The translations under genes were made by a program, and so were the position numbers. Below the pieces are notes generated by a model. It was not told where the DNA came from. It saw only the letters and a list, made by a program, of their open reading frames with translations, and did no database searches. A stretch of DNA of 63,891 nt, the filler included, from NCBI GenBank assembly GCA_964501035.1. It is 3 parts of 3 records of this genome, joined end to end, with 100 filler letters (N's around TTAATTAATTAA, not from the genome) between each part and the next. Parts side by side here need not be neighbours in the genome. Positions count along the whole stretch, not along the records: positions 1 to 31,086 come from CAZCRK010000015.1; 2 more parts are not named here. One strand, written 5' to 3'. Positions 2,533 to 26,396 of this stretch are shown piece by piece (position 1 is the first letter of the stretch; the number at the start of each line of letters is the position of its first letter).

Positions 2533-2540
2533 TTGTTTTA

Positions 2541-3344: not shown

Positions 3345-3369
3345 CAAAATCTCCTATACCCTTATATTA

Positions 3370-3392: not shown

Positions 3393-3917
3393 TCAGTCAG
3401 AAGAATTCGTTGTATCGCTATTTTCTTGCTGCTCTCCTACCATAACAGAGATATTTTGAATAGTGTTGTAATCTATATTTTCAATATAATATTTTCTGGT
3501 AATAGGAGATTCTCCTTCATCAGAAGCACTCACAACATAATTAGAAAATCCTGGCATTTGTAATGGACATGATAGTTTCGGATAATCAAGTTTACCATAT
3601 TGATCTGCTTCTGCTACTAAAAAGGTTCTTTCTTTATCGCCACACCCACAACCACCACAAATATGTTTTGTTGGATCAATTTGACTTTGCTGTAAATATT
3701 CGCATGGTGGTAATTGACCCCCCAAATCCTCATCACCAAAACAACTCAACACTCTAAGTTGTTTAATTGGTTTGTTAATTTTATTATTGGATAAATTTCT
3801 TGATGCAAGCGCAACAGCAAAACTCTGTACCATACTAAATTTTTTCTTTAATCCTCTTTGATTGGGATCAATAGAAGTTTTGCGGAACGAAATATTATTT
3901 TTTTTATCATCTTTCAT
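3393..3917 (-). CDS. Small Cys-motif (probably metal-binding) phage protein
   Basis: R..SC...PPC...HICGGCGC...KL......SCP pattern; GGAG RBS. Confidence 0.7.
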   Translation of the reverse strand: MKDDKKNNISFRKTSIDPNQRGLKKKFSMVQSFAVALASRNLSNNKINKPIKQLRVLSCFGDEDLGGQLPPCEYLQQSQIDPTKHICGGCGCGDKERTFLVAEADQYGKLDYPKLSCPLQMPGFSNYVVSASDEGESPITRKYYIENIDYNTIQNISVMVGEQQENSDTTNSSD

Positions 3918-3976: not shown

Positions 3977-5530
3977 TTATTCAATTTTTGCAACAATTAT
4001 AGGTCTTGCAAAAGCAATCATATCCATAGTGCTGCTGCTGACAAAAGAATTATTATTAAAAGTTTGAGTATATACCAAAGGGGTTCCACCAGTATCATTC
4101 AATAAAGTAGAAGACCAATATTTACCTTTCATTTGCCGATAATGTGATTCTGGTTTATTATTATTTAATATTGCGTTTTGTAAAAATTCTGGATTTGAAG
4201 TTTGTTTAAACATAAAGGACAATACTCTTATAGAAGGAAGCGACCAAAAATAACTACCAATACCATTAACTATAAAATCATTTTTGATATCATTGATTAA
4301 TTTAAATGAAGTATTTTTCATATTAAATTCAGAATTACAAACAGAAGTTTTTGGCGTTGATAATTGATTGCTAAAAATTACAGATTCGTTTTTGAAATCA
4401 TTATCTGCAACAATAATAGCATACTCATGTTTTGAATATGATTTCAGTTGCTTTTCAACAGAATCTTTAGATTTACCAAGAATAATAGTTTCTTGTGCAG
4501 GACCAGTTTCTATATTACCAATAACTTCAGTATATTCATAAGGACTATCTACAGAATGATATACACCAAGATACCTGCCAGCAATAAGCCAATCGCCAAT
4601 ATTAAGATTTATAATATCACTTCTTTTAATAGTTTTGTTTTGTATAAAATTTTTAACTATATTAATTTCGTTAGAATCGTCACAGTTATAGTTATCACCG
4701 TTAGGCCTCAATCCCATCCAAAAACCATCACAATTAATCAAAGAAGACATTTCACATTTATATTCCCCTTTATTTTTATTTTGAATACAAGCAGAAACCA
4801 AACCATCCTTTTGATTGATTGTGTTGATGTATTCTTCATCAAATGTTTTTAAATTTGTAACTCGCAATGTGTTATTATATTTTCCTTCTACTCCTAATCC
4901 ACCATGAATTTGATTTGAGTAATATTCACCAACTGAACAATCGGCTTCAAACTCATGAAAATTATCACCACATGCATTATCCGGGAAATATGATCCTGTC
5001 AATCCAGAAGATTGAGCATCCGAGCATTCCTTTTCTGAACAAACATTTTTACAATCATAAGTCCCGTCACCACTATTTACACAACAACCAGCAGGAAAAC
5101 GACTATCATACTCTACATTATTAGTTCCATTTGTACATAAATTAAATATATCTGTAATATCAGAATAATCTGAGCAACTTTTGTCTGCCCCTCCCCACAC
5201 ACCACCTTTAGCGTTACATTCGCATAAAGTAACATTATCTTCTAACCCCCCATTATAATTACTATATCCGTTCTCCGTATGTAAATATTCGTCAAAATCA
5301 TCAACATAAGAACAAGCACAACAACAACCAACTGATCCCAATTCTGGACACAAAATACTACCAATATCTTCCCCTGTTTGAAAATATTGAAAATATCCAT
5401 TAATTTTTAAACATTCACCATAAGTTAACTCTACAGCAGTACCACCAGGTTTACAGCAAGCACCAGTATCTGTAAGAATACTTCCATAATCTGCTATATT
5501 TTTAATTCTAGATCGAAATTGAATACTCAT
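3977..5530 (-). CDS. Cys-repeat protein with C-terminal Lcl/DUF1566-like (C-type-lectin fold) domain; putative fibre or receptor-binding protein
   Basis: Several GACC-type repeats, then WSLPS..L, KYWSST, ARPII motifs. Confidence 0.7.
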   Translation of the reverse strand: MSIQFRSRIKNIADYGSILTDTGACCKPGGTAVELTYGECLKINGYFQYFQTGEDIGSILCPELGSVGCCCACSYVDDFDEYLHTENGYSNYNGGLEDNVTLCECNAKGGVWGGADKSCSDYSDITDIFNLCTNGTNNVEYDSRFPAGCCVNSGDGTYDCKNVCSEKECSDAQSSGLTGSYFPDNACGDNFHEFEADCSVGEYYSNQIHGGLGVEGKYNNTLRVTNLKTFDEEYINTINQKDGLVSACIQNKNKGEYKCEMSSLINCDGFWMGLRPNGDNYNCDDSNEINIVKNFIQNKTIKRSDIINLNIGDWLIAGRYLGVYHSVDSPYEYTEVIGNIETGPAQETIILGKSKDSVEKQLKSYSKHEYAIIVADNDFKNESVIFSNQLSTPKTSVCNSEFNMKNTSFKLINDIKNDFIVNGIGSYFWSLPSIRVLSFMFKQTSNPEFLQNAILNNNKPESHYRQMKGKYWSSTLLNDTGGTPLVYTQTFNNNSFVSSSTMDMIAFARPIIVAKIE

Positions 5531-5557
5531 TAATGTTTCCTGTTAATATGTAGTAAT

Positions 5558-8500
5558 TTATTCATCACATTCGGGATATGGACACGAAGGAAATGTACAT
5601 TCCATCCAAACACATTCTCCAGAAGGTAATTTCACTTTTGTATAATTTTCGTTATTTTCTTCGGTTGGTAAAGGAGTAGTTATTATATCATCAGAATCAT
5701 TTACGGGATCATTCAAAGGCGGAGGCGAATCCGAAGGCTTTGTCAAAGGACAAAAGAAATTGCAATCCCAACACCCTCCGATACATATATAGTCTAGTGA
5801 CGGACAACCATTACTGCAGCCGGGGTGGCATGAACCAAATGCTTCAGTACAACGCGGCTCGCCTGTCGGTGGAGGGACAGGCAAATCTGGCGGCCAACAA
5901 CAACACACATTATGTGGGCAATCACAACAAGGCTCTTCTGCGCCGGGTATATCTGGATTATAGTCTAATTCGTCACATCTTGCATAACCAAAACAAACTT
6001 CACTATCACACCCATCCGGATGCCAAGCAGTACTACAACCCATCTCCTCATCACAACATCTTACAGGAATTTTACCGCACATACCCTCGCATTCTTGCTC
6101 ATTTTCAAACCTAATGCCACCCATACACGCACATTCTCCTTGTCCTTCGCCGGGTCCGGGGGCATACACACACCGACCAAACCCCTGGTTTTCTGGACAA
6201 CAACACCAACGGAAACAACATCGATGATGCGAAGAACAAAGATGGTCACAAACCCCTGATCCTGCTTCTGCACAAGTATTCTCTCCTCCATATTGAATAA
6301 CAAGCATACCACCCGGCGCAAAATCTTCACAATTCGCTCCCCTTGGCATATTCCAACAAGCAGGACCAAACTCCCAACACCCACAACAATGATCTGTTTC
6401 TGCATAGGGTGAATCCGTTGTTCCTGGCGGCGGTGAAGTAGGACTGGGACTGGGAGTGGGAGTGGGACTGGGAGTGGGACTGGGAGTGGGACTGGGAGTG
6501 GGATCGTCATCACATGGGTTTGGTGTACAAGAAACAGAATCGCCTAGATAATCACCATTAGAAGTAGAACAACTTGATTGTGTTGTTATTATACAATTTG
6601 TGTCAATGCAACACGCACCTTGCTCCCCTCCCCCTCCGCACTGTACGCAAGTAGGACAATCAACACAATCAGAACATTCTTCTAAACAACACAAAACATC
6701 TAAACATGATGTGTCGTCTCCGCCATATGTTCCGCCATAAGAAGAAGAACAAACAATTGCTTCAACAGGACCAACGCAAGAACCATCGGGTAAACAACAT
6801 GCTCCTTCAACAGGACCAATATTACACGGATCATCGTCACAACTAGAACCACCACCACTCCAGACACAACTATTACAACTGCAAAAATTTTCTATACTAG
6901 TATCGTGACATATGGGGTCTGTTCCTTCATGTGAGCAACATGCTCCTCTATCACACGGTCCATCTTCGCAATTTATTCCACCAAACCAAACAGAATTATT
7001 TGGATAATCTTCATAACAATCAGAACTTATCATGTAATAACATTCATTCCAATCAAAATTGTTTATAATACAACATGCTCCATATATTCCACCCACTTCA
7101 CAACCATCACAACTTTCAACCCACACATCACCGTCACTAACATCACAAGTACCATCTGAATCACAAATACCATCAGGATGACAACAAAACATCATATCAC
7201 ACCCAATATTACAATCGGAACCGTCGCCTCGATAAATTCCACTACTATTCTGACACTTTTCTGGTGTATAGTCTGGGTAACAAGACCCCCAAATACAACA
7301 TGCCCCTGTTGGCATATCACATGTTATATCATCACAAACTCTATGCTCATACCATATACCACCCACACTAATACAATAGTCTTCCGGCCAAAAATAACAA
7401 TCCCCATCTGGTTGACAGCACGCAGCAAAGGTTTCAGAAGAACAATCTACCTCTAAACAATTAAATCCTTCATGAAATATACCATCCATCGAATCACAGT
7501 CACTATTTGTTGATGATGAACATTCGTCATTAACACAACAAGCATATTGTGGTTCAGAGCAATCTATTTTATCACAATTTGAATAATAAACATCCCCACC
7601 CCACTCCAAACAGGTAGATTCATTCATATTATAGCAGGTGAACTGATCGACGCAGCAGGCAACATTATCAGGATTGTCCCCACATTTACTTTTACATTCT
7701 ACTTCAGTAGAAAACCACGATCCAGACAAACATTCACAAAAATTCATACTCTCACATGATTTATTTTCACAACAATAGCCACCATTTGTACACGATGTGT
7801 CGCCCCATACTCCTCCACAATCTGTGTCTGTGGTTTCGCTACAAGAATTATCTTCACAACACCAATCAATGTCAAAAACACCAGCACACGGACAAGGATC
7901 ATCCTCACAAGATGTACCTTCACCCTTAAAAATTCCTATACCCATACATGAATTTTCTTCTGCTTCGAAACACTCTTCACAATTATTCTTAACACAACAA
8001 GCACCATGCGGTGTAATTGTGTGACAACTACTATCAAAACAACTCATAGAATTCCAAGGATAATTTGAATTGTTGATATCCCCTTCATAAAAGGTTCCAG
8101 CTATTTTATCACTTTCACAATAACATATATTAGTTCTAAAACAGTTATCATAATCTACGGATTCCGAACAACACAATCCCCAACATTCTTTACCTGATGT
8201 CCAAGTTCCGTTACGATCATCACAGTCACTTTGTGTTCTATTTCTACAATAATCAGTCTGTATTGAATAGTCTTCGATTTTTGTTCCTATACCACCACAA
8301 TCAGCACTGTCCGCATAATAAATTCCTCCACCCCACAACATTTTACAATAATTCTCCGTCGAAAGAGAATTCAAATTATCCAAATATTCTGGAATATTAT
8401 TTATACACAAAAGAGTTTGACCACTAATTGATGGTATAAATCCTGACAGGGGCCAAAGACAAGATCTATTGTTATCTGGCTGCATATCACAATTATCTTC

Positions 8501-11500
8501 CCATGGTGGAGGACTTCCTTGTGGACAATGTTCAGGATTACTTTCTATGTCACCGGGAATTTGAGGATCTTTTACCGGAACTCCTCCCTCTCCTGCATCT
8601 ATATAACCAAATCTTCCTTTAACATCTGCTAACCAAGGGCGAGGTCCATCAGCATATTCGCCTATGATAGTACATTCATTATCTGAATATGGAGAAGAAA
8701 AATTACCTCCCCAATAATATCCATCATTGGTACACCTTATATAATTTCCGTACCATACCCTCGGACCCCCTTCATTACAACACACACCAATATCCAAGCA
8801 ATCAATATTAGCACAAGTGTTTCCGACAAAAAATGTATTATTAGTACCCTGCCACCTACACTCATTTTCAAAAACATCATCTTCACATAACTGCCTGCCA
8901 CGACAACAAGCACCGCGCGGTTCACAAGGACAAGGATCATCTCCGCACGATTCCTCATCATACCACACACCACCACTATTATCACATTCTGATCTTTTAA
9001 TGTCTTCACATTGTGCCTCACCACACCCACCATCTAGTCCAGCACAACATGCACCAAGATTATCACTACCATCACACGCCGGACAAGGATCAACAGAACA
9101 AATTCCAAAATCTGTGTTTGCTGTCCAACCCCCCCCAAAAACATTATTACAAACCTCTTCAGAAACATAAAAACAATCACCACAATCACCTTCAGTACAG
9201 CAATACCCGAGGTCATCAGGTTCGTTATTACAGGTTGGACACGCAGTCTCACCATCATAGCATAAATTATCAGAAGGACAAATACACGCACCCCAAGATC
9301 CCATACACTCCGCAGAGACTTGACAACACCCTGCACATTCATGCCATGTTGAATTTTCACCACTACAATGACTCTTATTCGTGTATCCACAAGAGCGTGT
9401 TGCATTTTGTGGTTCAATACAACACCCACCTATACCACTAAAATAATTATGGTAATTATCATTACAATTATTTAAATCACAAGTGCTATTCATTATCCAA
9501 CCGCAATGGTGTACCGAAGAAATTCCTGTATGATTTCCGGGGCTATATGGACCCTCACATATACCTTGACATTCTGACCATGTTACATTTTCATTACACA
9601 AATAACCACCATCACTACGGCAAGGAAGATAGCAACAACTTCCTTCACAAGGCCAATCAACATTAGAATTGCCGCACAATTGTCCGGCATGAAACTCTCC
9701 ACCTTTATCATCACACTCTGAATTGTTTGTATTATCACAACGCGGTACTGTTTCGAAACCAGATGTCTCCACATAACAACACGCACTAATACCAAATTCA
9801 CACAATCCCTCAATACAAAAATAATGTTCTGAATACCATGTTCCTTCAGTGCAAGCAGATTCAGTGGTTACTTCACAGTCTTTACCAGTACAACAAACAC
9901 CGGGACAATTACCGCACTCTTCTACAACAATTCCAGACATTATATGTTTACAAGTATATCCAGGCATTCTGGTACAAGTTCCTTCAACACAACAATGAAC
10001 CCAACATCCTTCATCGATATTAATATTATCTGGATCATCAGGATCACAAGAAGCATTCGACCAAAAACCCCCCTGAGAAGAACAACCACACCTACCCATT
10101 TCTTCACATTCGCCATTAACAAAACAACAAGCACCAATAGCAGAACAATCTTCAAAACTAACAGCCACCGAACACAATCCACCATGCCCATCCGTTTCGT
10201 TACACGGTACGCAAGCCCCATCAGGACAACAACATGCTCCTGACTCACCCTCACAAGTAATAGGATCTATTCCGCAAGTTGAATCACAACAAGTAGTATT
10301 TTCTGACCAAACTCCTCCCACCTCATTACATTCAGTTAGAGTAGTTAATGTACAGTCACAATATATATAATTCCCATTCCCATTAGGATCACATGGACAA
10401 CCAGAACCGAAGAAATCTTCGCACGGATCAGTGCAACATGCCCCAACCGGGTTATCACAATCAACACCATCACAAGGCCAAAAATCATACCACACGCCGC
10501 TCCAGGCGGCACAAACCTCATAAGTCATATCAGCATTATTATATGTGTCATAACATGTCCAATCATCAACACAGCACGAACCCGGACAATCTCCACCAGA
10601 ACTATTATTTCCGCATCCACACCCACCCCCTCCACACTCTCCACTTCCATCATAACAACCAATTCCACAGTGGACAGATAATGGTATATCCGATTGACAA
10701 TCATTAGGATTCGCTCTTAAATCATCACATGTTGTCCCTTCACCATACCAATAATTTAGAGGATGAGATGATAAAGGACAAGTACAAAGAGGCCTTATAG
10801 TTTCTACACAGTTACAATTTCCCTGACCATCTACATTATATACACAGCAAGCCCCCCGTTCCCAATCGCCACAATATGCGCATAGTGGTGCGCATAATTT
10901 TTTATTACAAACATCTACACATCTACTATTTCCTTCTCCCACACCCGCACAATCATCATGATCTGTACATTCTCTTGTTTCATTACCATCCAATATACCA
11001 TAGTAACAACTATTTACATCATCTGGACACACAAAGTCATTATCTGGGCATCCGCGAGTTTGAACACAACTTGTTCCATTATCATCATGGTTATTAACAC
11101 AAGTACATCCCCTATAGAATCTTCTTTCTTCCGGATCATCATCTAAAGGAGCAACATTCGTGCATACATCTGAATCATAATACATCCCACAACATTCCGA
11201 TGGTGGTTCAGGTTGCCAACTATCTGTCCAATCTTCATCCTCCTCCGAAGCATCCCAAGGAGAACCATCAGCAGAACCACAACTACACCCACAAGCATTA
11301 GTACTTAATAATTCGTCACAAGTATTAATGAACCATATATCACCTGAACTTTCACATTCATTTTGATTCATTGTCACACAACTATCACCAGCTTGACAGC
11401 AACTACCAGAAGGAGAACAATAAATAGAATCACAATCTTCATCCAATGTGAATGTTCCCCCCAACATACTACACTGATTGTTTGTTACACCATCTATACA

Positions 11501-11992
11501 GTGTTCTTCATTATAGCAACATGCCCCGCTACCAGAATAATCACAAACATCTGCACAAGATTGATTGACCGTCCACACACCATCTATACACATCTCCTCA
11601 GTCCAATTATCATAGCAAAGAGTATTATCACCAAAACAACACGCTCCAACCGGAATAGGAGAACCCGAACAATCAATAGTCCCGTCCGGCATTTCACCGT
11701 CAGCACAATATTGTCCATTATGATGAGTTCCTGAAAAATTATTGGTGCAAGTATATGCTGATACACCATCCAAACAATTTTCATTTTCTTGACAACATGC
11801 CCCATATCCAACCCCACAAGGATCATCTATACAATATGCACCTTCAATGAATGTATGCCCAAACGCACACAAATACATACAGACATTTTCTGTTACTTGA
11901 CCTCCAGGGTAATCATCCCACGCATCAGGCAAACAAGTTTGACCACAACAACAAACACCACAAGTTCCGGCGCAAGTTCCAGTATCAGTCAT
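5558..11992 (-). CDS. Giant (2144 aa) cysteine-rich tandem-repeat protein, putative fibre/appendage
   Basis: Dozens of GACC-x(3-5)-C-x(6-8)-C-xxx-GG-x-W/F/Y-x5-C-x4-C units; PTPS linker before a distinct Cys-rich C-terminal module; lies in the tail module. Confidence 0.85.
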   Translation of the reverse strand: MTDTGTCAGTCGVCCCGQTCLPDAWDDYPGGQVTENVCMYLCAFGHTFIEGAYCIDDPCGVGYGACCQENENCLDGVSAYTCTNNFSGTHHNGQYCADGEMPDGTIDCSGSPIPVGACCFGDNTLCYDNWTEEMCIDGVWTVNQSCADVCDYSGSGACCYNEEHCIDGVTNNQCSMLGGTFTLDEDCDSIYCSPSGSCCQAGDSCVTMNQNECESSGDIWFINTCDELLSTNACGCSCGSADGSPWDASEEDEDWTDSWQPEPPSECCGMYYDSDVCTNVAPLDDDPEERRFYRGCTCVNNHDDNGTSCVQTRGCPDNDFVCPDDVNSCYYGILDGNETRECTDHDDCAGVGEGNSRCVDVCNKKLCAPLCAYCGDWERGACCVYNVDGQGNCNCVETIRPLCTCPLSSHPLNYWYGEGTTCDDLRANPNDCQSDIPLSVHCGIGCYDGSGECGGGGCGCGNNSSGGDCPGSCCVDDWTCYDTYNNADMTYEVCAAWSGVWYDFWPCDGVDCDNPVGACCTDPCEDFFGSGCPCDPNGNGNYIYCDCTLTTLTECNEVGGVWSENTTCCDSTCGIDPITCEGESGACCCPDGACVPCNETDGHGGLCSVAVSFEDCSAIGACCFVNGECEEMGRCGCSSQGGFWSNASCDPDDPDNINIDEGCWVHCCVEGTCTRMPGYTCKHIMSGIVVEECGNCPGVCCTGKDCEVTTESACTEGTWYSEHYFCIEGLCEFGISACCYVETSGFETVPRCDNTNNSECDDKGGEFHAGQLCGNSNVDWPCEGSCCYLPCRSDGGYLCNENVTWSECQGICEGPYSPGNHTGISSVHHCGWIMNSTCDLNNCNDNYHNYFSGIGGCCIEPQNATRSCGYTNKSHCSGENSTWHECAGCCQVSAECMGSWGACICPSDNLCYDGETACPTCNNEPDDLGYCCTEGDCGDCFYVSEEVCNNVFGGGWTANTDFGICSVDPCPACDGSDNLGACCAGLDGGCGEAQCEDIKRSECDNSGGVWYDEESCGDDPCPCEPRGACCRGRQLCEDDVFENECRWQGTNNTFFVGNTCANIDCLDIGVCCNEGGPRVWYGNYIRCTNDGYYWGGNFSSPYSDNECTIIGEYADGPRPWLADVKGRFGYIDAGEGGVPVKDPQIPGDIESNPEHCPQGSPPPWEDNCDMQPDNNRSCLWPLSGFIPSISGQTLLCINNIPEYLDNLNSLSTENYCKMLWGGGIYYADSADCGGIGTKIEDYSIQTDYCRNRTQSDCDDRNGTWTSGKECWGLCCSESVDYDNCFRTNICYCESDKIAGTFYEGDINNSNYPWNSMSCFDSSCHTITPHGACCVKNNCEECFEAEENSCMGIGIFKGEGTSCEDDPCPCAGVFDIDWCCEDNSCSETTDTDCGGVWGDTSCTNGGYCCENKSCESMNFCECLSGSWFSTEVECKSKCGDNPDNVACCVDQFTCYNMNESTCLEWGGDVYYSNCDKIDCSEPQYACCVNDECSSSTNSDCDSMDGIFHEGFNCLEVDCSSETFAACCQPDGDCYFWPEDYCISVGGIWYEHRVCDDITCDMPTGACCIWGSCYPDYTPEKCQNSSGIYRGDGSDCNIGCDMMFCCHPDGICDSDGTCDVSDGDVWVESCDGCEVGGIYGACCIINNFDWNECYYMISSDCYEDYPNNSVWFGGINCEDGPCDRGACCSHEGTDPICHDTSIENFCSCNSCVWSGGGSSCDDDPCNIGPVEGACCLPDGSCVGPVEAIVCSSSYGGTYGGDDTSCLDVLCCLEECSDCVDCPTCVQCGGGGEQGACCIDTNCIITTQSSCSTSNGDYLGDSVSCTPNPCDDDPTPSPTPSPTPSPTPTPSPSPTSPPPGTTDSPYAETDHCCGCWEFGPACWNMPRGANCEDFAPGGMLVIQYGGENTCAEAGSGVCDHLCSSHHRCCFRWCCCPENQGFGRCVYAPGPGEGQGECACMGGIRFENEQECEGMCGKIPVRCCDEEMGCSTAWHPDGCDSEVCFGYARCDELDYNPDIPGAEEPCCDCPHNVCCCWPPDLPVPPPTGEPRCTEAFGSCHPGCSNGCPSLDYICIGGCWDCNFFCPLTKPSDSPPPLNDPVNDSDDIITTPLPTEENNENYTKVKLPSGECVWMECTFPSCPYPECDE
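6441..6502. repeat. G-rich 6/12-bp tandem repeat (GGGACT/GGGAGT)n encoding a PTPS linker
   Basis: Seen directly; 6447-6502 is identical to 31019-31074. Confidence 0.95.
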
Positions 11993-11998
11993 CTTAAA

Positions 11999-13939
11999 TC
12001 ATACTCCGATATTTCCACAACAAGAACCAACACCATAGAAAGTTCCACCAGAACTAGCACATTCATCAGAAGTTATTTCTGAACACCCACCGGACGATAA
12101 ACAACACGCACCAATCAAAGGTTCACAAATTGCAGAAACACAACTCGTATTGATATCAGTAAATATACCACCAGAAAGAGAACAATCTTCCATTGTTAAT
12201 TCCTGACAAGAACCATCTGATAAACAACATGCTCCTATATCATCAGTGAAACAACAATTTACAGTTTCACAATCGGTATCAGGCCCCATGAAAAACCCAC
12301 CATCTGAAAAACATTGATGGTTTGTATCAATATAACATTCAAAATGCTCTCTACAACAAGCACCAACATAAATTGTAGCATCACAACAATCAACTTCTCC
12401 GCAAATTCCTTCTATTGCAATACCACCATAAACATTTTCGCAAATTATTTTAGATATTGGTGGAAGTTTTTCATCAGGATTAAAGGGATCATTGCCCATA
12501 CCACCACCATTAGAATCACCAATACAAACTCCATCTCTACAACAGGCAATTGGGGCACAGCAAGGATCTAAACAAATCCTATCATCTGTTAAATTAGTAC
12601 ATTCATATTCACCAGTATTGCCTTCTTCATCACCCTCAAACATATTCATATTACATCCAATAATAACTGGTTCATTAAGAGGTTCTGCTCTTCCCCATTC
12701 ATCTTTAGTATAATAAAAATAGTTCCAAAACTTGCCGCCGAAATGATCACATTCTGCCGGACCAACTTCTTCTAAACAAATAGCAGTACTGGCAAACAAA
12801 CCCCAATCGCCACCCTCATTACAACAAATACCATTTGCTTCTTTACCACAATTTTCTGCACAAGTTGAAAAAGGATTCCAAAAATTTTCATTATATTCTT
12901 TACATTCGTCTTCTGATAAATAATCAATACAATTTGATTCTCCGTCATCGTCTGTATAGCAGCAAGATCCCACACCATAAACATTAAAACAATCATCAGT
13001 TCCGTAACCTCTGGCTGCTATTGTTGCTTTCCAACTTTTACCCCCATCAGTACTCAAAAAATTTATAATATCTGTTCCACAAGAAAAGAATAAATCTGAT
13101 CTATCAAAATATACATTACTAGGCCAATCCCAAAGTTTATTTCCTTTTAATTGCATCACAAAACTAAAAACTTCACCATCAACAAAATTACCAGTGAACC
13201 CTTTAATTCCTATAGGGGTTTCAACTTTATATACACTTCCTCTTCTAACTTCAAATTGAATGCCTGTTCCCATACCAGCAGTAGGACCAAAATAATATTC
13301 AGTAGCACCAGTGATTCCAACAACCCAATCACTTTCAATAGGTTCAACATTTATTATAATTTCTTCTGGATCGTATGTCCACCGATTTCCAGTATGACCA
13401 TGACCAAATATCATATGCCCGACAACACTGTCACTATACCCATATGTTAAACCGGAAGAACCATATACATCATGACGACTAAGATAAGCAAATCTTCTTT
13501 TATCGGGAGTTACATTCCCGGCAGAAGCACCCTGATACACATAATCCCCACTAATTCCAACAACATTATCTGTTTCATATATTAATAATGTACCATCAGA
13601 AGTCAATCCCTTAAACCAAAATGTAATACCGTCTGTAACTTCTTTAAATATATCATAACCATCACCAAGAGTAAGACCACCAGCATCGCCACTTGCCCCG
13701 GTTACTCCAGATAAATTTCCAATAGTCAGTTCTCTTCCATCTGACAGAGTTATTATCAAATCTCTATCGGAAGGTCTTCCAGAAACAACATAAATTCCTG
13801 TAGCACCAGTAAACCCAGTAGCACCTGTAGCACCAGAAAAGCCAGAAGGACCAGTATTTCCGGTTGGTCCAGTCAAACCTAAAGGACCGGCGACTGCTGC
13901 CGGAACTGTTACTGCACTACTTCCTATTATTGGTGACAT
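11999..13939 (-). CDS. Collagen-like / Cys-repeat fibre protein
   Basis: MSPIIGSS head, GxT triplets, WPSNVYF...GTDIINFLSTDGGKSW fibre domain, GACC repeats; ends in a TGA in frame with the next gene. Confidence 0.8.
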   Translation of the reverse strand: MSPIIGSSAVTVPAAVAGPLGLTGPTGNTGPSGFSGATGATGFTGATGIYVVSGRPSDRDLIITLSDGRELTIGNLSGVTGASGDAGGLTLGDGYDIFKEVTDGITFWFKGLTSDGTLLIYETDNVVGISGDYVYQGASAGNVTPDKRRFAYLSRHDVYGSSGLTYGYSDSVVGHMIFGHGHTGNRWTYDPEEIIINVEPIESDWVVGITGATEYYFGPTAGMGTGIQFEVRRGSVYKVETPIGIKGFTGNFVDGEVFSFVMQLKGNKLWDWPSNVYFDRSDLFFSCGTDIINFLSTDGGKSWKATIAARGYGTDDCFNVYGVGSCCYTDDDGESNCIDYLSEDECKEYNENFWNPFSTCAENCGKEANGICCNEGGDWGLFASTAICLEEVGPAECDHFGGKFWNYFYYTKDEWGRAEPLNEPVIIGCNMNMFEGDEEGNTGEYECTNLTDDRICLDPCCAPIACCRDGVCIGDSNGGGMGNDPFNPDEKLPPISKIICENVYGGIAIEGICGEVDCCDATIYVGACCREHFECYIDTNHQCFSDGGFFMGPDTDCETVNCCFTDDIGACCLSDGSCQELTMEDCSLSGGIFTDINTSCVSAICEPLIGACCLSSGGCSEITSDECASSGGTFYGVGSCCGNIGV

Positions 13940-13959
13940 ATTATATCCTCATTTACCTA

Positions 13960-16602
13960 TTATTTAGGATAAAAACAATTATCACATCCATTAACACAAA
14001 CACAATTAGTAGATTTATTTTCACATTCAGAGCAGGGTCTGGGTTCTTTATATTCTATACAACTTTCTTTACAGCAACAAGAACACACCATCCATACAGG
14101 ATTTTCTGGATTTGAATTATCCACATATGGTTTACATTTGTGTTCATTTTCTGTCCAATTTTCATCACGAATCTCGCAAACAGATACACCATCAGGAACA
14201 GATGATGGACTATTTGATGTCTGATAACAAAAATCTTCAAAGCAACCAAAAACAGGCTGACATCTTTTATCGATTTCTGAGCAATCATTAACAATTCCAC
14301 CATCCCCCAATGCACCTTCCCAGCAAACATCAGGACAACAACAAGAGCATTTTCCACTACCAACTTCAATTATCCATGGATTATCGTTTTCTGGAGGAAT
14401 TATAATTCCGGGTTCTACACACGAAGACAAACTAAATATTCCGTCACACGACAAACTAGCAATTGGAGAATCTATAGGTTTTCTTATTCTGTTTGTTTTG
14501 GTTGATATAATCTTGCTAGTTTTATTATTAGTTTCTAGTTGTGTTATTGATGATAAAGAAGGAGAATCTATAATTTCCTCTTCTTTAAAATCACTTCTAT
14601 TTTTATAAGAATTACAAATACCAGAAACACAATTCCCTCCTATCCATACCCCACCATTTGCATGACATGTATCAGGTACAACATTATTTTGACAAGCATC
14701 TCCATAACAACATGCACCAAAAGAACAATCTAAAGTATAACATGTTTCTGTAGAAAAATATCCATTATTTTCTAAACAAGTAGTTTCGGTTAAAGGTAAA
14801 CATACATAATCACCATATCCATCAGAAACACAACATCCACCAATTGTTTCTATATCGAATTCTTCTCTACAACATTCCCAACAAGAACCATCAACTAATA
14901 CTATTGTACCACAACTTAAAGGATCAACCTGACAATCACAAGGACAATTAATTCCATCACATTCGCAGATTGCATCGTCCTCTGCACAATCACCAACAAT
15001 TTGTGTCCACCCCAAACACCCTCCTTCTATACATGGTGGTAAATGATTTACACCCGCACAATTACCGTCTACATCTAAAGTACCTCCAATAGTTCCATTT
15101 TCCAATATGCAATTATATGGCGAATACCTCTCATCAGGAACATCTAAACCCGGATCCATATTCAAACCGCCGCATCTTGAACCAATGCCCCAAAATGTCC
15201 CTGGCGATCCATCACTAGAACGAAGGTTTGTACAAATTGCCGGACTAGTATGGTAACAAACTTCATCAACACAACACGCTCCATAAAATCCTTCTATACA
15301 ACAATTGGTTTCATCACAAGGAGTTTCTAACCACACTCCATTAGAAACAAATGAGCATTCATATTCAGTAAACGGAAAACATTCTCCATTAATACAACAA
15401 GACCCCCTTATGCCACATGGTTCTGGACACCCTCCAAGAATATCAATATCCTCACAGTCTCTGCCTCGTACAAAAAAACCGCCATAAATTTCACATTTGT
15501 TTTTACTTGTTTCCACACATTTCTTTTCTCTTGTGAGACAACATGCTCCTTCAACAAAACAATCTACACCTTCTGAACGATTCAAACAAACTTCAAAAGA
15601 AAAATTTCCTCCTATTGCATCACAATAATTTTTATTAACATAATCAACACATAACGGATGATCTTCTTCCTCTCCTACACCCTCAGAACAATAACAACAA
15701 GAACCTAAAGATGATGTTGCAACCGAATATAAATCACTATAAGTTATTCCAGAAAATACAAAAACAATATCAGAACTAGCACCCTCATTATCTGAAGTTC
15801 TTCCTAAATGAAACCCACTAACAATTGCTGTTGCGCCTTGAATTCCTGTAGAAGGATCGTCTTCAAAAATACTACTAAAAGAAACAGAAGTTCCTTCTGT
15901 ATTTGTTAAACTTACTACATCAACTGGGTTTGATGCTGTAATACCATATTCGGGAAAATTGTTATTGTCTTTTAAAGTTTCCCGATGAGATAATATTCTT
16001 GCAGCGAATTGATTACCATCCCAAAAAGTGTTTAATGCTCCGTGTGCTGATAAACCCCCAACCCTATTATCAATAAAAAGAAGTTCGCCAGTATTTCCAG
16101 CAAGTCCCCACTCATATGTTGTTCCTCGAAGAAAAACGGAATAATCAGTCGGAGAAATAACTTCAATATCTCTTCCTGAGACAGTTAAATTTCGAAAATG
16201 CCCAGTAATTCCTATTCTTTCTTTAAATATTTTTCCATAACCATCATTTTCAATGGTATTTGTTATATTAAAATTATCGGATATTCTATCGCCTGTCCCA
16301 CCACGAACACCAGTAACGCCCATAGTTGAACCGGGTCCAACTAATTGCCCGTAAGTTGGACCTTCATAACCAGCAAGTTGAAAAATTATTTGATATTTAT
16401 AATCATTCTCACCACCACCGGTTCCTATAACAGCATTAATGCCACCACTAATACCATATCCAGTAAACCCCAACGCTCCTATAGGGCCTGTTTCACCAGT
16501 ATTACCGATAGCACCAGTAATACCTACAGCACCACTAGGACCAGTTATTGGACTAATCCCCGTCAAATCGAATATTCTACTACTTCCATGAATTGTTGGC
16601 AT
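13960..16602 (-). CDS. Collagen-like / Cys-repeat fibre protein
   Basis: MPTIHGSS head, Gxx triplets, multiple GACC/GSCC repeats, Cys-rich C-terminus. Confidence 0.8.
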   Translation of the reverse strand: MPTIHGSSRIFDLTGISPITGPSGAVGITGAIGNTGETGPIGALGFTGYGISGGINAVIGTGGGENDYKYQIIFQLAGYEGPTYGQLVGPGSTMGVTGVRGGTGDRISDNFNITNTIENDGYGKIFKERIGITGHFRNLTVSGRDIEVISPTDYSVFLRGTTYEWGLAGNTGELLFIDNRVGGLSAHGALNTFWDGNQFAARILSHRETLKDNNNFPEYGITASNPVDVVSLTNTEGTSVSFSSIFEDDPSTGIQGATAIVSGFHLGRTSDNEGASSDIVFVFSGITYSDLYSVATSSLGSCCYCSEGVGEEEDHPLCVDYVNKNYCDAIGGNFSFEVCLNRSEGVDCFVEGACCLTREKKCVETSKNKCEIYGGFFVRGRDCEDIDILGGCPEPCGIRGSCCINGECFPFTEYECSFVSNGVWLETPCDETNCCIEGFYGACCVDEVCYHTSPAICTNLRSSDGSPGTFWGIGSRCGGLNMDPGLDVPDERYSPYNCILENGTIGGTLDVDGNCAGVNHLPPCIEGGCLGWTQIVGDCAEDDAICECDGINCPCDCQVDPLSCGTIVLVDGSCWECCREEFDIETIGGCCVSDGYGDYVCLPLTETTCLENNGYFSTETCYTLDCSFGACCYGDACQNNVVPDTCHANGGVWIGGNCVSGICNSYKNRSDFKEEEIIDSPSLSSITQLETNNKTSKIISTKTNRIRKPIDSPIASLSCDGIFSLSSCVEPGIIIPPENDNPWIIEVGSGKCSCCCPDVCWEGALGDGGIVNDCSEIDKRCQPVFGCFEDFCYQTSNSPSSVPDGVSVCEIRDENWTENEHKCKPYVDNSNPENPVWMVCSCCCKESCIEYKEPRPCSECENKSTNCVCVNGCDNCFYPK
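13961..13968 (-). promoter_or_regulatory. Possible late promoter CCTAAATA
   Basis: TAAATA core ~20 nt upstream of start 13939, followed by GAGG RBS; overlaps the previous stop codon. Confidence 0.4.
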
Positions 16603-16603
16603 G

Positions 16604-19600
16604 TTATGTTTGATTTATTCCTTTATCATTATCCTCTAAAACTTTAGGAAGTTTCCATAGTTTGTAATTATCATCATATAAATCTGGATATTTACCATCA
16701 CATCTGACTAAACGAATAGGTCTTACTTGATATGTATTTTTTGTTCTATTCTTTTTACCAACAATAAAATTATTAGAATTTCCATTAACATCAAATTTAA
16801 TTGCCCAAGAAAGAGAACCCGGATCTGCTGTTGCTCCTGTTATTCCTGTCGGATTAATAATTCCTTCCCCACTACCAGCAGTTATTCCTTTTGTTTCATC
16901 AAAAGCACCAGTTGAAGTCCAATACCAACCATCAAAAGGGGTTCCATCATTTTCTAAAAGTTTTGAGTTAATATTAAATCCATCAGAATCACCAATGCAA
17001 GAATTTGCAATATATGCCAATTCATCATGACTGGGAAGATACCACCCAGAAACATAATTAGAATTTTCTCCTGTTGCACCGGTAGCAGAAATTAAATTAT
17101 CATCATATAACCTAACAAGTCGTGTAGCAGAAATATATGAACCAGTTAAACCGGGTCCAAAATTACCAGAAGAATAATCTCCATCAATATCATTATAATT
17201 TTCAGAAAGAGCATTATTTGCAGAAATTGCTCGTATAGTATTATACAATCCCCAATTTCTATGCCACATTCCGTGTGATGCGTTGGGATTTTTGGTTTTA
17301 ATTTTTTGAATTGCTTTATTTCCGTTTCTCCTAGCAGAACGGCAAGAACTAAAAGTATTAAACGGTAAAGTGTTTAGAGATGAATTTCCAATATATTGAT
17401 TGTACCAATATCCTTCTGATAATTTAAATATCCTGCTTTTGTATTCTTTATCAATATCATCATATTGGTTAGTTGTTTGATTATAAATTGGACCCCAAGC
17501 ACTTCCCCGATTTCCCCAATAAAATTCACTTGTTGCTCCAGAAACATCGTTAGGATTGACTACCTCTCTATTACCAGTAACTCCCAAAGGATATAAAGAA
17601 GTAATAATATAATAAGAATCAGGTTTACTACTTGCTTCCCGTAAAACCGACAATTTATCATACTCAACACAACCGCCAACAGAATCAAATCCATAACCAT
17701 GCCAATCATATTTTGTTCTATACGAACTACAGGGTAAACCATAATTATCAAAGGTTGATCCTGTACCACCTTCCATTAATATTTCCCATGAAGTAAATTT
17801 ATTACCACCAAAACTCCTAGCACCAAAAATTTCTGAACTATAAGGACGATATAACCCCACAACCATTCCACCAGCATACAAATCGCCTGGTTGTAAATCT
17901 AATCCTGCAATTTCTGAAACACAACCAGCATTTCCAAGATTGTTTAAAGAATTTCTATCAGCAATATCGCCACATTTGCTATTATCACCTGCATATAAAT
18001 CACCTCTATCTATACAAGCAGAACCAGAAATACCATCAATACACCCACCAGTTCCTAAACATGCACCAGTACCACCCAAACAAAGATTTGTCCCCATACC
18101 AGAAACACACGAAACCCCCACACCCAAGAAATAATTATTTTGTTTAACACATTGTTTTTTGGTTGTTTCAAAACATTCTCCCCTACCATCACAACATCCT
18201 CCAATCCCATCTATAACATTAAAACAATTCATATCATCACATATGCTGCCAGTTCCTCCAAACGAAGAAGCGTTATTGTGTAAATTTCCTATATTAATAC
18301 ACTCATCAGCAGTTATATCATCATAGCAATTTACATTTCCATTTATTATATCAACAACACAACAAGAACCAGTATCAAAACAAATACCACCAGAACCACC
18401 AACTATTCCGCCACAAGTAGTGCCAGCACCATGATAATAACCACTACAAAAAGATTCTGGCACATGCGCACATATTCCGTTACCAACACAACATGCACCA
18501 GTTGCTCCTGTTATTCCTCCAATTCTGGGATAATTTAATTTACCAGATTTGAAATTAACCGTATTGGTATGACAATAGAATGGATCATTTTCTGTTCCTT
18601 CTTCTATTAATATATCTTGAGATTTCCATTGAACTATATTACCATGCCATGCACCACCACCAACACACACATCAACCAATCCATCTCCATTTATATCTCT
18701 TGGTTCGCAAGGCAACCAAAAAAAGTTAAATATATCTGTTCCTCCACTCCAACAAGGTTCTTTATCAAAAGACCAAATTATATTAGTTCTATCAAACCTA
18801 TTTTGCTCTTTTGTAAGAGCATTGTGTACTATTAGAGTAAATGCTTTACCATATTCATTACTGGTTGTAGGACCATTTCCGGTATAACCAAACCTAGCAT
18901 CTTGAAAACTTAACTGAACAGCACCAGTCGATCCTCCGTATGTAACGCCATCGAGTTGACGCATATCAAGAACAAAAACTTTTGCTTTATTTGAATCAAT
19001 TGGGGTTTCTGGTGGTGGAGCGTATATGGGTTCATCACCAGAATTTGCTTGATTTGTTATATCCCCATTTATACCAATGGTTAAGAATTTTACTTTTTCT
19101 TTATAATCTTGAATTTGAACTTCTATTGCATTAGCAGAAACATCATATGTTGTTCCCGTAAGCCCGCGAAATTGTGGAGTTGCTTGAGCATCAGTACCAA
19201 CTAACATTTTATTTACGCCAGATTCAACATTCAAATAACCAAAATTGCCTCTATCATAATCAACATTGATTGTATTTAAATTTTCATCTTGCGTTAAAGT
19301 TAAAGCATCACCAGTAACTTCTATACTCTTAACTACTAAAGAATTTAGTTCGTTGCTAGAATTTCTTCCCTTAGCAAAAGTTGCTCCAACACCATAACTT
19401 GATTCGTAAGTATTTCCTCCATCAATAAGATTATAGGTATCACCAGTGGGGCCTTGAATTTTGGTTGTGGTTGTATATCCGGCAGTAGTACCATCTCTTA
19501 ATTCAAATATAGTACGAAGTTTATCATTATTAACAATATACATGTTAGTGATGTTTCCACCACTAAATCCGGTCGATCCAACTATTCCTTCTCCGGTTGG

Positions 19601-19699
19601 ACCAGTAGGTCCAGTCGGACCAGTAGGTCCGGTTGGACCAGTGACTGCTGTTTGCCCGATTGGTTTAAAATGACTACTACCATGAATAATTGCTACCAT
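16604..19699 (-). CDS. Collagen-like / Cys-repeat fibre protein with C-terminal Lcl/DUF1566-like domain
   Basis: MVAIIHGSS head, (GPT)5, GACC repeats, WYLPSHDEL...WYWTST...VRPIR motifs. Confidence 0.8.
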   Translation of the reverse strand: MVAIIHGSSHFKPIGQTAVTGPTGPTGPTGPTGPTGEGIVGSTGFSGGNITNMYIVNNDKLRTIFELRDGTTAGYTTTTKIQGPTGDTYNLIDGGNTYESSYGVGATFAKGRNSSNELNSLVVKSIEVTGDALTLTQDENLNTINVDYDRGNFGYLNVESGVNKMLVGTDAQATPQFRGLTGTTYDVSANAIEVQIQDYKEKVKFLTIGINGDITNQANSGDEPIYAPPPETPIDSNKAKVFVLDMRQLDGVTYGGSTGAVQLSFQDARFGYTGNGPTTSNEYGKAFTLIVHNALTKEQNRFDRTNIIWSFDKEPCWSGGTDIFNFFWLPCEPRDINGDGLVDVCVGGGAWHGNIVQWKSQDILIEEGTENDPFYCHTNTVNFKSGKLNYPRIGGITGATGACCVGNGICAHVPESFCSGYYHGAGTTCGGIVGGSGGICFDTGSCCVVDIINGNVNCYDDITADECINIGNLHNNASSFGGTGSICDDMNCFNVIDGIGGCCDGRGECFETTKKQCVKQNNYFLGVGVSCVSGMGTNLCLGGTGACLGTGGCIDGISGSACIDRGDLYAGDNSKCGDIADRNSLNNLGNAGCVSEIAGLDLQPGDLYAGGMVVGLYRPYSSEIFGARSFGGNKFTSWEILMEGGTGSTFDNYGLPCSSYRTKYDWHGYGFDSVGGCVEYDKLSVLREASSKPDSYYIITSLYPLGVTGNREVVNPNDVSGATSEFYWGNRGSAWGPIYNQTTNQYDDIDKEYKSRIFKLSEGYWYNQYIGNSSLNTLPFNTFSSCRSARRNGNKAIQKIKTKNPNASHGMWHRNWGLYNTIRAISANNALSENYNDIDGDYSSGNFGPGLTGSYISATRLVRLYDDNLISATGATGENSNYVSGWYLPSHDELAYIANSCIGDSDGFNINSKLLENDGTPFDGWYWTSTGAFDETKGITAGSGEGIINPTGITGATADPGSLSWAIKFDVNGNSNNFIVGKKNRTKNTYQVRPIRLVRCDGKYPDLYDDNYKLWKLPKVLEDNDKGINQT
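19592..19642 (-). repeat. 9-bp period repeat encoding the collagen-like (TGP)n stretch
   Basis: TGPTGPTGPTGPTGPTG in translation. Confidence 0.85.
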
Positions 19700-19729: not shown

Positions 19730-21046
19730 TTATTCTAAATAACTACTACCTGTACTTGCTGCTGAACCTTCTACCATAACTTGTATACTGTTAACTTTAC
19801 CTTGTATTTCGTTTGCCCATTCAACTAGATTTGTAACTGTAGTTGTTTTACCATTAAGAACAACTTTTTCTACATTAATAGTTTTAGCATCAATAGTAGA
19901 TGCAACCGAAACAGAAGTTCCTGCCATTCCGTAGGACGAAGTACCTGCAACTTTGTCGGGAGCAGTGTAAAACCACGCATCCATCCCCATTGACATTATT
20001 TTTCCGTCAATATCAAAATTAATTTTAGAAAAAGTATTATTAGAAGAAAGAGAAGGAAGATCAAAAGAATAATATTCCCATCCTCTCATACTTAATATCT
20101 CACCAGTACTAACAGTCATAACACCACTACCAAGATAGGGTGTAAGATTGCTTGAATTGCTGGCAGGCCATTCAACAACCACATATCCAAGAGAAGAATT
20201 AAAATCGACAATTTTTCCTCCTTTTAGGGGGGTATTTTTTCCATCACGAACCTTTACGGTTTTGCCAAACTGCTTAGATGAAACGCCAGTACAATCTATT
20301 TTAGTACGAGTTTTACATAAATTTTTAATTTCACCATAAACACTATAATAAGTATTTCCGTATTCCCCGTTCCCACGAAGATTCATTTTTGTTCCAGCAC
20401 GCGACCAACTACTAGAATTATTAACACCACTATTAGTATATTCAGGAACAAATGATATTGCTCCAGCAGGAAGTTGTCTAGAATCTTCTGCAACTATTTG
20501 ACCGCCAGATTGATAACCAATATAATTTATTACTTGACCTGTAAATGGATCATCAGGAGAAACTTGATATATTGGTTTTATTACTTGTGTTGGTTCAGTA
20601 GGTGCAAGGTTTTGTAAAATTCCAGCAGTAGCAGCACTTAAGAAATATATATCATTTCCGCCGCCAGAACCAGTAGAGCCGGGAAATTCATACGATTCTT
20701 TTAGTTTACCTTCTGGATATTTGATTTGACCATTAGTAACAATATTAACAGAAGAATCCGAACCGTAAGGCAATTCTGTTGTAATATCATTAAGTCTACC
20801 AACACTAATATCTTCAATTACTCCCACCACTTCTGAATGTGCAGGATTGTCTGCTTGTGCTGTTACATAATAACCATAAGACGGACTATCAACATCACTA
20901 TCATAACGAACAGCATCGCCTGCTGTAAATCCACCAGAAAATCCAGTAGAATTTAATGTCATAAGAAGTCTTGCACCATTAGAGATGTCATATACATTTA
21001 CATGACCTATGATGTTAGAACTACTATTTGAACAAGAACTCGACAT
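19730..21046 (-). CDS. Virion structural / fibre-associated protein
   Basis: AQAD..HSEVVGVI and YFLS...G.L....PT.P.Q..KP segments paralogous to the next gene. Confidence 0.65.
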   Translation of the reverse strand: MSSSCSNSSSNIIGHVNVYDISNGARLLMTLNSTGFSGGFTAGDAVRYDSDVDSPSYGYYVTAQADNPAHSEVVGVIEDISVGRLNDITTELPYGSDSSVNIVTNGQIKYPEGKLKESYEFPGSTGSGGGNDIYFLSAATAGILQNLAPTEPTQVIKPIYQVSPDDPFTGQVINYIGYQSGGQIVAEDSRQLPAGAISFVPEYTNSGVNNSSSWSRAGTKMNLRGNGEYGNTYYSVYGEIKNLCKTRTKIDCTGVSSKQFGKTVKVRDGKNTPLKGGKIVDFNSSLGYVVVEWPASNSSNLTPYLGSGVMTVSTGEILSMRGWEYYSFDLPSLSSNNTFSKINFDIDGKIMSMGMDAWFYTAPDKVAGTSSYGMAGTSVSVASTIDAKTINVEKVVLNGKTTTVTNLVEWANEIQGKVNSIQVMVEGSAASTGSSYLE

Positions 21047-21061
21047 TTATTTTATCTCCAT

Positions 21062-23434: not shown

Positions 23435-23460
23435 AATGTTATAATAATCTCCTTATAGTT

Positions 23461-23468
23461 TATTTATA
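23461..23468 (-). promoter_or_regulatory. T4-type late promoter TATAAATA
   Basis: Exact consensus in the intergenic gap, followed by an AAGGAG RBS. Confidence 0.7.
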
Positions 23469-23472
23469 TCTT

Positions 23473-24465: not shown

Positions 24466-24473
24466 TTTTTATA

Positions 24474-26381: not shown

Positions 26382-26396
26382 TGATTATTTTGTTCC

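Follow-up and report, generated by a model that had tools for sequence, protein, structure and literature searches.

The contig CAZCRK010000015.1 of the assembly GCA_964501035.1 supplies positions 1 to 31,086 of the window (the whole stretch of 63,891 nucleotides analysed here) and is a fragment of an uncultured marine T4-like myovirus with all its genes on the minus strand. Five consecutive genes of this contig (3977-19699), together with a truncated sixth one at its end, are best explained as a host-recognition fibre cluster of that phage, whose products would form fibres of disulfide-locked beads, a reading to which we assign, from sequence and structural models, a probability of roughly 0.55. 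The feature itself is real, conserved and unusual, that is, phage host-recognition fibres made from an uncatalogued but widespread bead of the disulfide type. From the genes and their repeats we infer the location of the proteins in the virion, the disulfide state and the pairing of their cysteines (Cys), the timing of oxidation and the binding to a receptor. The five proteins are referred to as A517, B2144, C646, D880 and E1031 after their lengths in amino acids, and both these lengths and the interval that they occupy agree exactly between our calls of open reading frames (ORFs) and the original prediction, an earlier reading of this DNA that pointed to the array.

The bead is a unit of ~41 residues with six Cys, for which a profile was derived from 18 copies. 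This profile gave 26 domain rows in B2144, five in C646, six in D880 and four in E1031 (E 3e-74 to 2e-18), one further unit in the ORF at 30718-31134 (E 7.8e-10), and in A517 just two partial and weak rows (E 1.4e-4), while none of the other 226 of the 232 six-frame ORFs of the window fell below E 0.3. The proposal that all five genes and the sixth share the unit therefore holds for the four large proteins and for the sixth gene, but A517 keeps degenerate copies only. In the same way, the repeat put forward by the original prediction is real when judged by profile, whereas its literal pattern matches once, so that a profile describes it better. The G[AGS]CC signature was observed 34 times, against a mean of 1.5 and a maximum of 8 in 1000 composition-preserving shuffles, and a loosened version of the unit pattern 25 times, against a mean of 1.1 and a maximum of 7 in as many shuffles. 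Among 21 aligned units of the window (alignment A1, 21 of the 44 domain rows of the repeat-bearing ORFs, with independent E < 1e-4) the Cys at positions 5, 6, 12, 20 and 34 are invariant and a sixth one is frequent; a conserved histidine (His) is lacking in the unit.

Three of the proteins follow a common plan. The first fibre gene of the array, E1031 (16604-19699), starts with an I-x-GSS motif and a collagen-like segment of 5-8 G-X-Y triplets (~19559-19639), continues with a globular part and about four six-Cys units (17963-18502), and ends in a 442-residue C-terminal domain (16607-17932) whose last ~120 residues look C-type-lectin or DUF1566-like. D880 (13960-16602), the second one, begins with an I-x-GSS-type motif and 10 triplets (~16453-16548), and its Cys-free part of ~300 residues is followed by six units (14608-15708) and by a Cys-rich C-terminal tail with CSCCC motifs, so that the Cys per 100 residues run from the N- to the C-terminus as 0, 0, 0, 14, 13, 15, 10, 11 and 13; the tail is weakly similar to that of B2144 (E 1e-4). 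The third fibre gene, C646 (11999-13939), shows the N-terminal motif with 10 triplets (13796-13888), a conserved globular domain at residues ~60-320 and a run of Cys-rich units (12005-12973), the last three of them canonical (12002-12370).

The remaining members depart from this plan. B2144 (5558-11992) is a giant protein lacking a collagen-like start, and with an isoelectric point of 4.05 and 15 Cys counted within its first 100 residues it is as acidic and as rich in N-terminal Cys as had been predicted; its ~26 units (6506-11803) show a Cys-poorer gap near residues 1075-1215 and are followed by a Pro-Thr/Pro-Ser (PT/PS) linker (~6395-6496) and a Cys-rich tail of 280 residues. A517 (3977-5530), the last gene of the array and a marginal member of the repeat family, has ~190 Cys-rich N-terminal residues with one GACC and the degenerate units (5168-5467), whereas the ~300 residues of its C-terminal part are Cys-free and carry a W-x-LPS...WSST motif; it too is devoid of a collagen start, and the genes at the same position in relatives carry 1-4 units. 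The sixth repeat gene announced at the contig end was confirmed there, directly upstream of a gp5-like gene: its C-terminal 123 residues (30718-31086) comprise a PT/PS linker, one clean canonical unit (30853-30975) and a Cys-rich tail, and its N-terminus is lost by a cut within the linker. Altogether, Cys make up 4.6, 14.2, 6.7, 8.6 and 3.1 % of A517, B2144, C646, D880 and E1031, against 0.3-2.1 % in neighbouring structural genes (n=5), and of the 479 Cys of the five proteins 304 belong to B2144. Pairwise BLASTP comparisons among the five revealed little in common outside the repeats and the collagen-like starts. Kinship between the C-termini of A517 and E1031 scored low (hhalign probability 13.7 %, E 0.002), and a Cys-free ORF with a FISUMP (Fib_succ_major) domain that leaves the window end on a cellular contig (63577-63891, minus strand) was rejected both as kin of the E1031 C-terminus (hhalign probability 0.5 %) and as the sixth gene.

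The fibre character of the cluster is suggested by its N-termini, its models and its position. The N-terminal motif and the 5-10 triplets shared by C646, D880 and E1031 match tail-fibre and collagen-like families of PHROGs, and also BclA, and with the Pfam collagen family (PF01391) they score 21.1 against a cut-off of 27.2, with ~10 triplets in C646 and D880. When residues 1-320 of C646 were modelled as a homotrimer, the interface score ipSAE was 0.46, in comparison with 0.00 for the best of three controls; among solved pairs of one chain 20 of 30 attain the mark of 0.46, and among single chains 1 of 23. In that model the predicted local distance difference test (pLDDT) is at least 58, the contacts agree in at least 53 %, and the interface comprises residues 12-56 and 85-132, which supports the trimer but does not demonstrate it. 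The T4 fibre families (gp34-37, gp12) gave no match in Pfam or PHROGs except through the collagen-like start. The T4 fibres and fibritin offer a parallel, since they are encoded in the slot between baseplate and neck genes and form trimeric fibres with a distal receptor-binding tip, but the proteins described here share no sequence match with them, start with collagen-like triplets and are built of Cys beads.

At the other end of E1031, the model of the C-terminal 442 residues (pLDDT 81.2, predicted template-modelling score (pTM) 0.89) found as its best Foldseek match the fimbrial protein 4eps of Bacteroides (probability 0.99, E 0.011, 119 columns), and the next matches, carbohydrate-recognition domains of C-type lectins and Mtd, stand at chance level (E > 0.7). 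The Pfam family Lcl_C/DUF1566 (PF07603) scored 18.2 bits against a cut-off of 34.9, and it matched 13 of 29 E1031 homologues at E <= 0.01 (best 4e-5), all of them below the cut-off. This tip is likely, if not securely, a lectin-like receptor-binding domain. The Lcl protein of Legionella combines collagen repeats with an Lcl_C/DUF1566 domain, and animal collectins are built alike; E1031 resembles both in its collagen-like start, predicted to trimerise, and its putatively Lcl_C-like C-terminal domain, and differs from them in its Pfam scores below the cut-off, in the ~850 residues, Cys beads included, that separate the two parts, and in its phage tail context.

The array lies between the baseplate wedge genes and gp13, gp14 and gp15, tightly packed on one strand of the late structural operon, a gene position that corresponds to the cluster for host recognition in pelagi- and cyanomyophages as presented in the accessible part of PMC7029224. 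That account describes a hypervariable block of fibre genes between the baseplate genes and gp14, with collagen repeats reported, and the 123-kb relative G001 likewise carries many glycosyltransferase genes; on the other hand, the word 'cysteine' does not occur in the accessible text of that paper (PMC7029224). The gp6 of the window is at most 32 % identical to the collection records. This block bears as well on the very unlikely alternative that some or all of the proteins are not parts of the virion, with B2144 and A517 in particular being released or directed to the host surface as adhesins, decoys or agents of superinfection exclusion. Such a role would suit the lack of a collagen start or attachment domain in both proteins, the fact that the closest bead proteins are cellular surface proteins, and the many non-fibre genes held by the recognition clusters of related marine myophages, according to the part of PMC7029224 that could be consulted. 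It is opposed by the lack of any signal peptide, by the packing of the genes on one strand of the late structural operon, and by the giant repeat ORFs that hold the same place in the nearest relatives.

These relatives came from an alignment-based scan of IMG/VR, which returned 91 relatives, 77 loci being kept, in contrast to a scan with the single C646 protein, which returned nothing. At least one repeat ORF is present in 73 of the 77 loci, at least two in 50 and at least three in 29, always on one strand, and in the closest relatives the array includes giant repeat ORFs of up to 3080 residues with 11-14 units. C646 has 44 homologues besides itself, reaching 42-54 % identity, and in an alignment of 28 sequences (A2, 28 of 45 matches used) the Cys columns are invariant; a further alignment, A4, used 28 of 50 rows. 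The relative G001 (CheckV 68 %) contains the full T4 core set and, upstream of its gp5-like gene, a gene for 1,367 residues with five units that is the counterpart of the truncated sixth gene. G001 also carries a CobS-like gene together with Cpn10 and Hsp20 (L089:9031-9336 and L094:427-894), which as a matter of speculation might help to keep Cys-rich chains soluble until they are oxidised. Its region from L088:8453 to L089:7577 contains ~20 genes of sugar-nucleotide synthesis and of glycosyl-, sialyl-, fucosyl- and sulfotransferases beside a collagen-repeat protein, and this block, together with the PT/PS linkers of B2144 and the sixth gene, prompts one to ask if the fibres carry glycans.

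Such conservation makes it scarcely credible that the array is an artefact of assembly or annotation, be it a contig of chimeric origin or giant ORFs called in low-complexity DNA. What could have prompted that suspicion is that the contig ends in low-complexity PT/PS-coding DNA, that it was binned with a bacterial metagenome-assembled genome (MAG), and that unrelated contigs pile up on part of the array to ~1000x: at positions 6077-6601 the summed contig depth is ~1000x, against ~5x elsewhere, in all four seawater runs. Against it stand the Logan contigs from seawater metagenome runs of three studies, which match the window DNA with 0-3 differences and free of indels, so that the giant frame, open over 6.4 kb, is no accident of assembly, as well as the homologues with invariant Cys at 42-54 % identity and the synteny of 73 loci. 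The contig end at 31086 is real and falls within the PT/PS-coding repeat DNA, which numerous other organisms share and which is the probable cause of the break in the assembly there.

A closer view of the bead is provided by a model of three units of C646, for which 53 non-overlapping segments of 57 unique near-full ones, from 312 domain rows, gave an alignment of 54 rows from the phage loci (A3). In this model each unit consists of a beta-hairpin, a short helix and a strand. The mean pLDDT of 86.8 but pTM of 0.48 indicate units that are loosely coupled, which fits the beads-on-a-string arrangement predicted at first for these genes at the fibre position of a T4-like phage; the structure prediction of two to three repeats that had been suggested gave this fold. 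The unit profile matched in the PDB only iRhom1/2 at E <= 1 (best 5.6e-5), with all six Cys aligned, and the profile of three units gave a weaker iRhom match (E 0.004) along with chance-level matches to RNases. With the three-unit model, Foldseek placed iRhom chains first, weakly (E 0.24-0.35), and found nothing at E <= 0.001, while VIA-align against 48,161 representative chains also placed iRhom first (Z 3.5, root-mean-square deviation (rmsd) 1.8 A over 42 residues, 26 % identity), with a second iRhom chain at Z 2.9 (rmsd 1.8 A, 41 residues, 32 % identity). [quoted passage not shown] Kazal inhibitors and a de novo miniprotein (Z 2.0-2.4) were treated as generic small-fold likeness. An identity with the epidermal growth factor (EGF) module was rejected as well, since no EGF family appears at E <= 0.1 in Pfam and the predicted unit has a helix; EGF was also unlisted in the fold searches of the three-unit model, which by itself says little.

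According to the accessible parts of two reports, the IRHD is stapled by eight disulfides and structurally unprecedented (PMC11248996), all its 16 Cys being paired (PMC10148629). The likeness of the bead to the IRHD of iRhom1/2 (PDB 9xy4, 8snl) concerns one sub-module with six aligned Cys in an extracellular or luminal, fully disulfide-bonded setting; however, the IRHD is a single domain of ~250 residues and 16 Cys located between transmembrane helices 1 and 2 of a rhomboid fold, whereas the units described here form free tandem arrays. In line with this difference, one sub-module of ~42 residues aligns, the whole 16-Cys domain is not matched, and the translations show no rhomboid or transmembrane context. 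A literature search, from which subscription journals were mostly absent, found no paper on prokaryotic relatives of the IRHD.

The unit matches no characterised phage fibre family: no model of it is present in the copies of Pfam, NCBIfam and PHROGs searched, and among 50,697 phage records searched by tblastn with the low-complexity filter on there was no match to C646 (E <= 1e-3) or to residues 1440-1840 of B2144 (E <= 1). A literature search of the same coverage yielded no paper on the repeat in phages or Planctomycetota. The profile of 21 units nevertheless reached 7,738 cluster representatives at E <= 1e-3 among 1.84 billion proteins (3,595 clusters at E <= 1e-10 and 786 at E <= 1e-30), so that the profile search suggested by the original prediction revealed a large family, for which no viral or cellular name was found, and the description of the array as an undescribed system was overstated: the bead belongs to a very large uncatalogued family, and the genes form an ordinary host-recognition fibre cluster at a conserved position. 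Where the repeat occurs in named genome records, these come mostly from Candidatus Eisenbacteria and Planctomycetota (Phycisphaerales, Isosphaeraceae, Planctomycetales), with a few from Fibrobacteraceae, Acidobacteriota and Ilumatobacter, and the Atlas neighbours of the unit are Planctomycetota clusters. The five top cellular matches are long tandem arrays of GACC-x-DG-x-C-x7-C-x3-GG-x-Y-x-G-x3-C-x-PNPCP. By a crude heuristic, a signal-peptide-like N-terminus is present in 95 of the 140 top cellular matches that start with Met, and in none of the five window proteins or of 31 C646 homologues; these cellular starts, and the luminal and disulfide-bonded nature of the solved relative, bear out the earlier idea of a module of extracellular type. 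In a Pfam scan of 32 of the 150 cellular matches listed, picked across ranks, eight carried PKD, fn3, SdrD_B, DUF11-type, Flg_new_2, Laminin_G_3 or FlgD_ig domains, or tails like those of the type IX secretion system (T9SS). The repeat of Planctomycetota and Eisenbacteria fits the same profile (GACC-x5-C-x7-C-x3-GG-x-aromatic-x-C-x4-C, six Cys, a period of ~41 and long tandem arrays), but it is accompanied there by signal-peptide-like starts, PKD, fn3 or SdrD_B domains and T9SS-like or dockerin-like ends, none of which occurs in the phage proteins; these have instead collagen-like starts and a place in the tail operon, and their units are more divergent.

Binding of metal (Zn or Fe, through Cys thiolates) by the six Cys of each bead would suit a reducing cytoplasm. 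Characterised T4 fibres are Cys-poor, beta-structured trimers that carry structural metal ions bound by His, a precedent that counts for metal, as do the very high Cys density of proteins devoid of a signal peptide and, more speculatively, a possible metallochaperone role of x174, the neighbouring 174-residue protein considered below. However, a unit with six Cys and lacking a conserved His does not split into tetrahedral sites. Moreover, 1216 of 1288 distinct tandem units (94 %), with a modal period of 41, hold exactly six Cys, and the variants lose or replace Cys pairwise: only 60 of 2294 units have five Cys, two units of four Cys miss both Cys12 and Cys33, and several units have a Cys at position 19 in place of an absent Cys38, so that they behave like disulfide partners. 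The occurrence of homologous units in proteins that are secreted, and in the IRHD with its disulfide bonds, argues in the same direction. Metal is therefore less likely than disulfides in the beads, and as an overall explanation it is quite unlikely.

The absence of a signal-peptide-like start in the window proteins and in 31 C646 homologues indicates that the chains are made in the cytoplasm. The dedicated oxidation route considered by the original prediction did not appear: in the five long relatives, which are 60-70 % complete, DsbA was found in none, with 9 of 14 control genomes positive, and Erv1 in none, a blank that says little because no control genome gave a match, and on the contig itself both were absent from the PHROGs and Pfam scans. 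Among 123 of the 129 called ORFs of G001 (the other six cross fetch boundaries) no redox family was detected, apart from a sub-threshold thioredoxin- or glutaredoxin-like N-terminus (E 2.3e-5 and 1.4e-4). The ORF that carries it, at L089:12761-14251 on the minus strand, encodes 497 residues with N- and C-domains of glutamine synthetase.

The gene of x174 (3393-3917) separates the fibre array from gp13, and its product is conserved much more strongly than the fibres. The 51 unique homologues of x174 in the IMG/VR loci hold each of six Cys (C59, C72, C87-x2-C90-x-C92 and C117), invariant in the alignment, at 94-100 %, and the G001 copy matches at E 2e-78. It has no match in Pfam, PHROGs, NCBIfam or the PDB, and the Atlas gives only viral 'hypothetical' clusters; x174 could be an adaptor, an assembly factor, a metal site or a redox factor. 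It is a candidate in the alternative that a dedicated factor oxidises the beads within the infected cell, be it x174, the thioredoxin-like domain, an enzyme encoded on the part of the genome that is missing, or one of the host. The constant position of x174 beside the array and its conserved Cys would agree with such a function, as would the thioredoxin-like N-terminus of G001, the fact that the phage is known from 31 kb and its relatives from genomes 60-70 % complete, and the example of large eukaryotic viruses that make cytoplasmic disulfides and encode their own oxidases. It is nonetheless an unlikely explanation, given that DsbA and Erv1 were recovered from none of the five relatives (the latter lacking a positive control), that the thioredoxin-like match is sub-threshold and limited to one of them, and that x174 has no match among redox families, PDB chains or named clusters. 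In addition, the virion of the cyanophage Pam3 has disulfides and the accessible part of its description mentions no phage oxidase (PMC9942802). Pam3 sets a precedent for functional disulfides in a finished virion: its fibres are linked by disulfides to the wedge, and dithiothreitol releases them and triggers contraction, as reported in that part of the paper (PMC9942802). Pam3 gp24 and its wedge are thus comparable in belonging to a myophage assembled in the cytoplasm whose fibres depend on disulfides, but there a few inter-subunit bonds secure the joint of fibre and wedge (PMC9942802, same part), whereas the shaft of the present fibres would be formed by hundreds of bonds within domains, and no sequence relation exists.

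Under the favoured explanation of disulfide-locked bead fibres, E1031, D880 and C646 would be paralogous trimeric fibres whose three chains intertwine over the N-terminal motif, the ~10 G-X-Y triplets and a further ~80 residues, a part that presumably attaches to the baseplate. Next would come a globular domain and then a string of independent beads of ~41 residues, each with three disulfides, acting as stiff and protease-resistant spacers that present variable distal parts, among them the C-type-lectin-like DUF1566 domain of E1031, which may bind a glycan of the host surface. B2144, with its ~26 beads and very acidic character, and A517 are probably accessory or distal components, fibres or adhesins, of the same apparatus. 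The chains, free of signal peptides, would be made in a reducing cytoplasm, and their bonds most likely close with no need for an Erv- or Dsb-type phage oxidase, as its absence from the five partial relatives suggests, late in infection or upon release into oxic seawater. A further, tentative and rather doubtful proposal goes beyond this scheme and regards the fibres as redox-gated: they would be reduced and flexible in the cytoplasm, and only after lysis into oxic seawater would up to ~240 disulfides per chain set (479 Cys) rigidify the beads and render the particle competent for adsorption, the bead being an ancient extracellular module common to surface proteins of Planctomycetota, fibres of marine phages and the animal IRHD in its core.

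Several observations weigh against these fibres as drawn. The lectin-like assignment of the E1031 tip stays below the Pfam cut-off, no attachment domain is recognisable in either B2144 or A517, and the scores of the iRhom match, taken as such, are weak (Z 3.5, Foldseek E 0.24-0.35). The pairing of the Cys rests on a few variant units, and we know of no precedent for ~150 disulfides in one cytoplasmic chain. With regard to oxidation, the relatives scanned are 60-70 % complete and the Erv1 search was positive in no control, and both the conserved x174 adjoining the array and the thioredoxin-like domain detected below threshold in one of five relatives could be the redox factor.

The rest of the contig supplies the genomic frame of the array. 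In the direction of transcription the truncated repeat gene is followed by gp5-like, gp25, gp6 and wedge genes, four unassigned structural ORFs, the five repeat genes, x174, gp13, gp14, gp15, the small terminase and the start of the large terminase, and PHROGs 219, 261, 211, 460, 227, 445 and 5989 in conserved order mark a T4-like structural module. According to PHROGs and Pfam, the upstream structural genes (19730-30673) comprise a gp5-like tail protein (29948-30673), gp25-like (29504-29908) and gp6-like (27727-29502) proteins, and members of 438, 790 (PHROG tail fibre 4492), 330, 635 and 438 residues (the latter a baseplate wedge), while the downstream neck and packaging genes (3-3347) are gp13-like (2541-3347), gp14-like (1606-2532), gp15-like (836-1606), the small terminase (361-903) and the large terminase, start only (3-368). 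The Pfam families above cut-off on the contig are Gp6-like_1st, GPW_gp25, T4_neck-protein and T4-gp15_tss. The gp14-like protein carries an extra C-terminal part of ~90 residues with a weak match, below the cut-off, to the ice-binding-like adhesive family pAdhesive_15 (E 7e-4). No gp23 capsid, gp20 portal or gp18 and gp19 sheath and tube genes lie on the 31-kb contig, all of them being present in G001.

With regard to its origin, the contig is the sole sizeable phage contig of a MAG of 1.87 Mb and 167 contigs; after position 31086 come N spacers, and positions 31191-63891 of the window are other contigs of the same MAG, with cellular genes such as those for an RF-1-like factor, phosphoribosyl pyrophosphate synthetase and glycosyltransferases. 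The MAG shows 39 matches to T9SS sorting tails. Binning alone does not establish the host of the phage, and since the six-Cys repeat was not found in the rest of the MAG or in 200 other genomes of its phylum (E <= 1e-6), the bin shows no sign of a host that shares the bead. The phage itself is distant from those in collections: its gp6 shares no more than 32 % identity with any of the 2,369 phage records that match it, and 24 kb of the window gave no megablast match among the 50,697 records of the phage collection. No RNA is listed among the sequencing runs that carry window DNA.

The interest of these fibres lies in that phage fibres determine host range and that those of abundant uncultured marine T4-like phages are almost unannotated. 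A defined profile of the bead would label thousands of 'hypothetical' proteins, both in phages and in Planctomycetota and Eisenbacteria. Moreover, fibres that need hundreds of disulfides and come from a reducing cytoplasm raise the question of when and how the virions mature. The link with iRhom, if true, would provide the first non-animal relatives of a domain described as lacking structural precedent, and with them small soluble models of its core.

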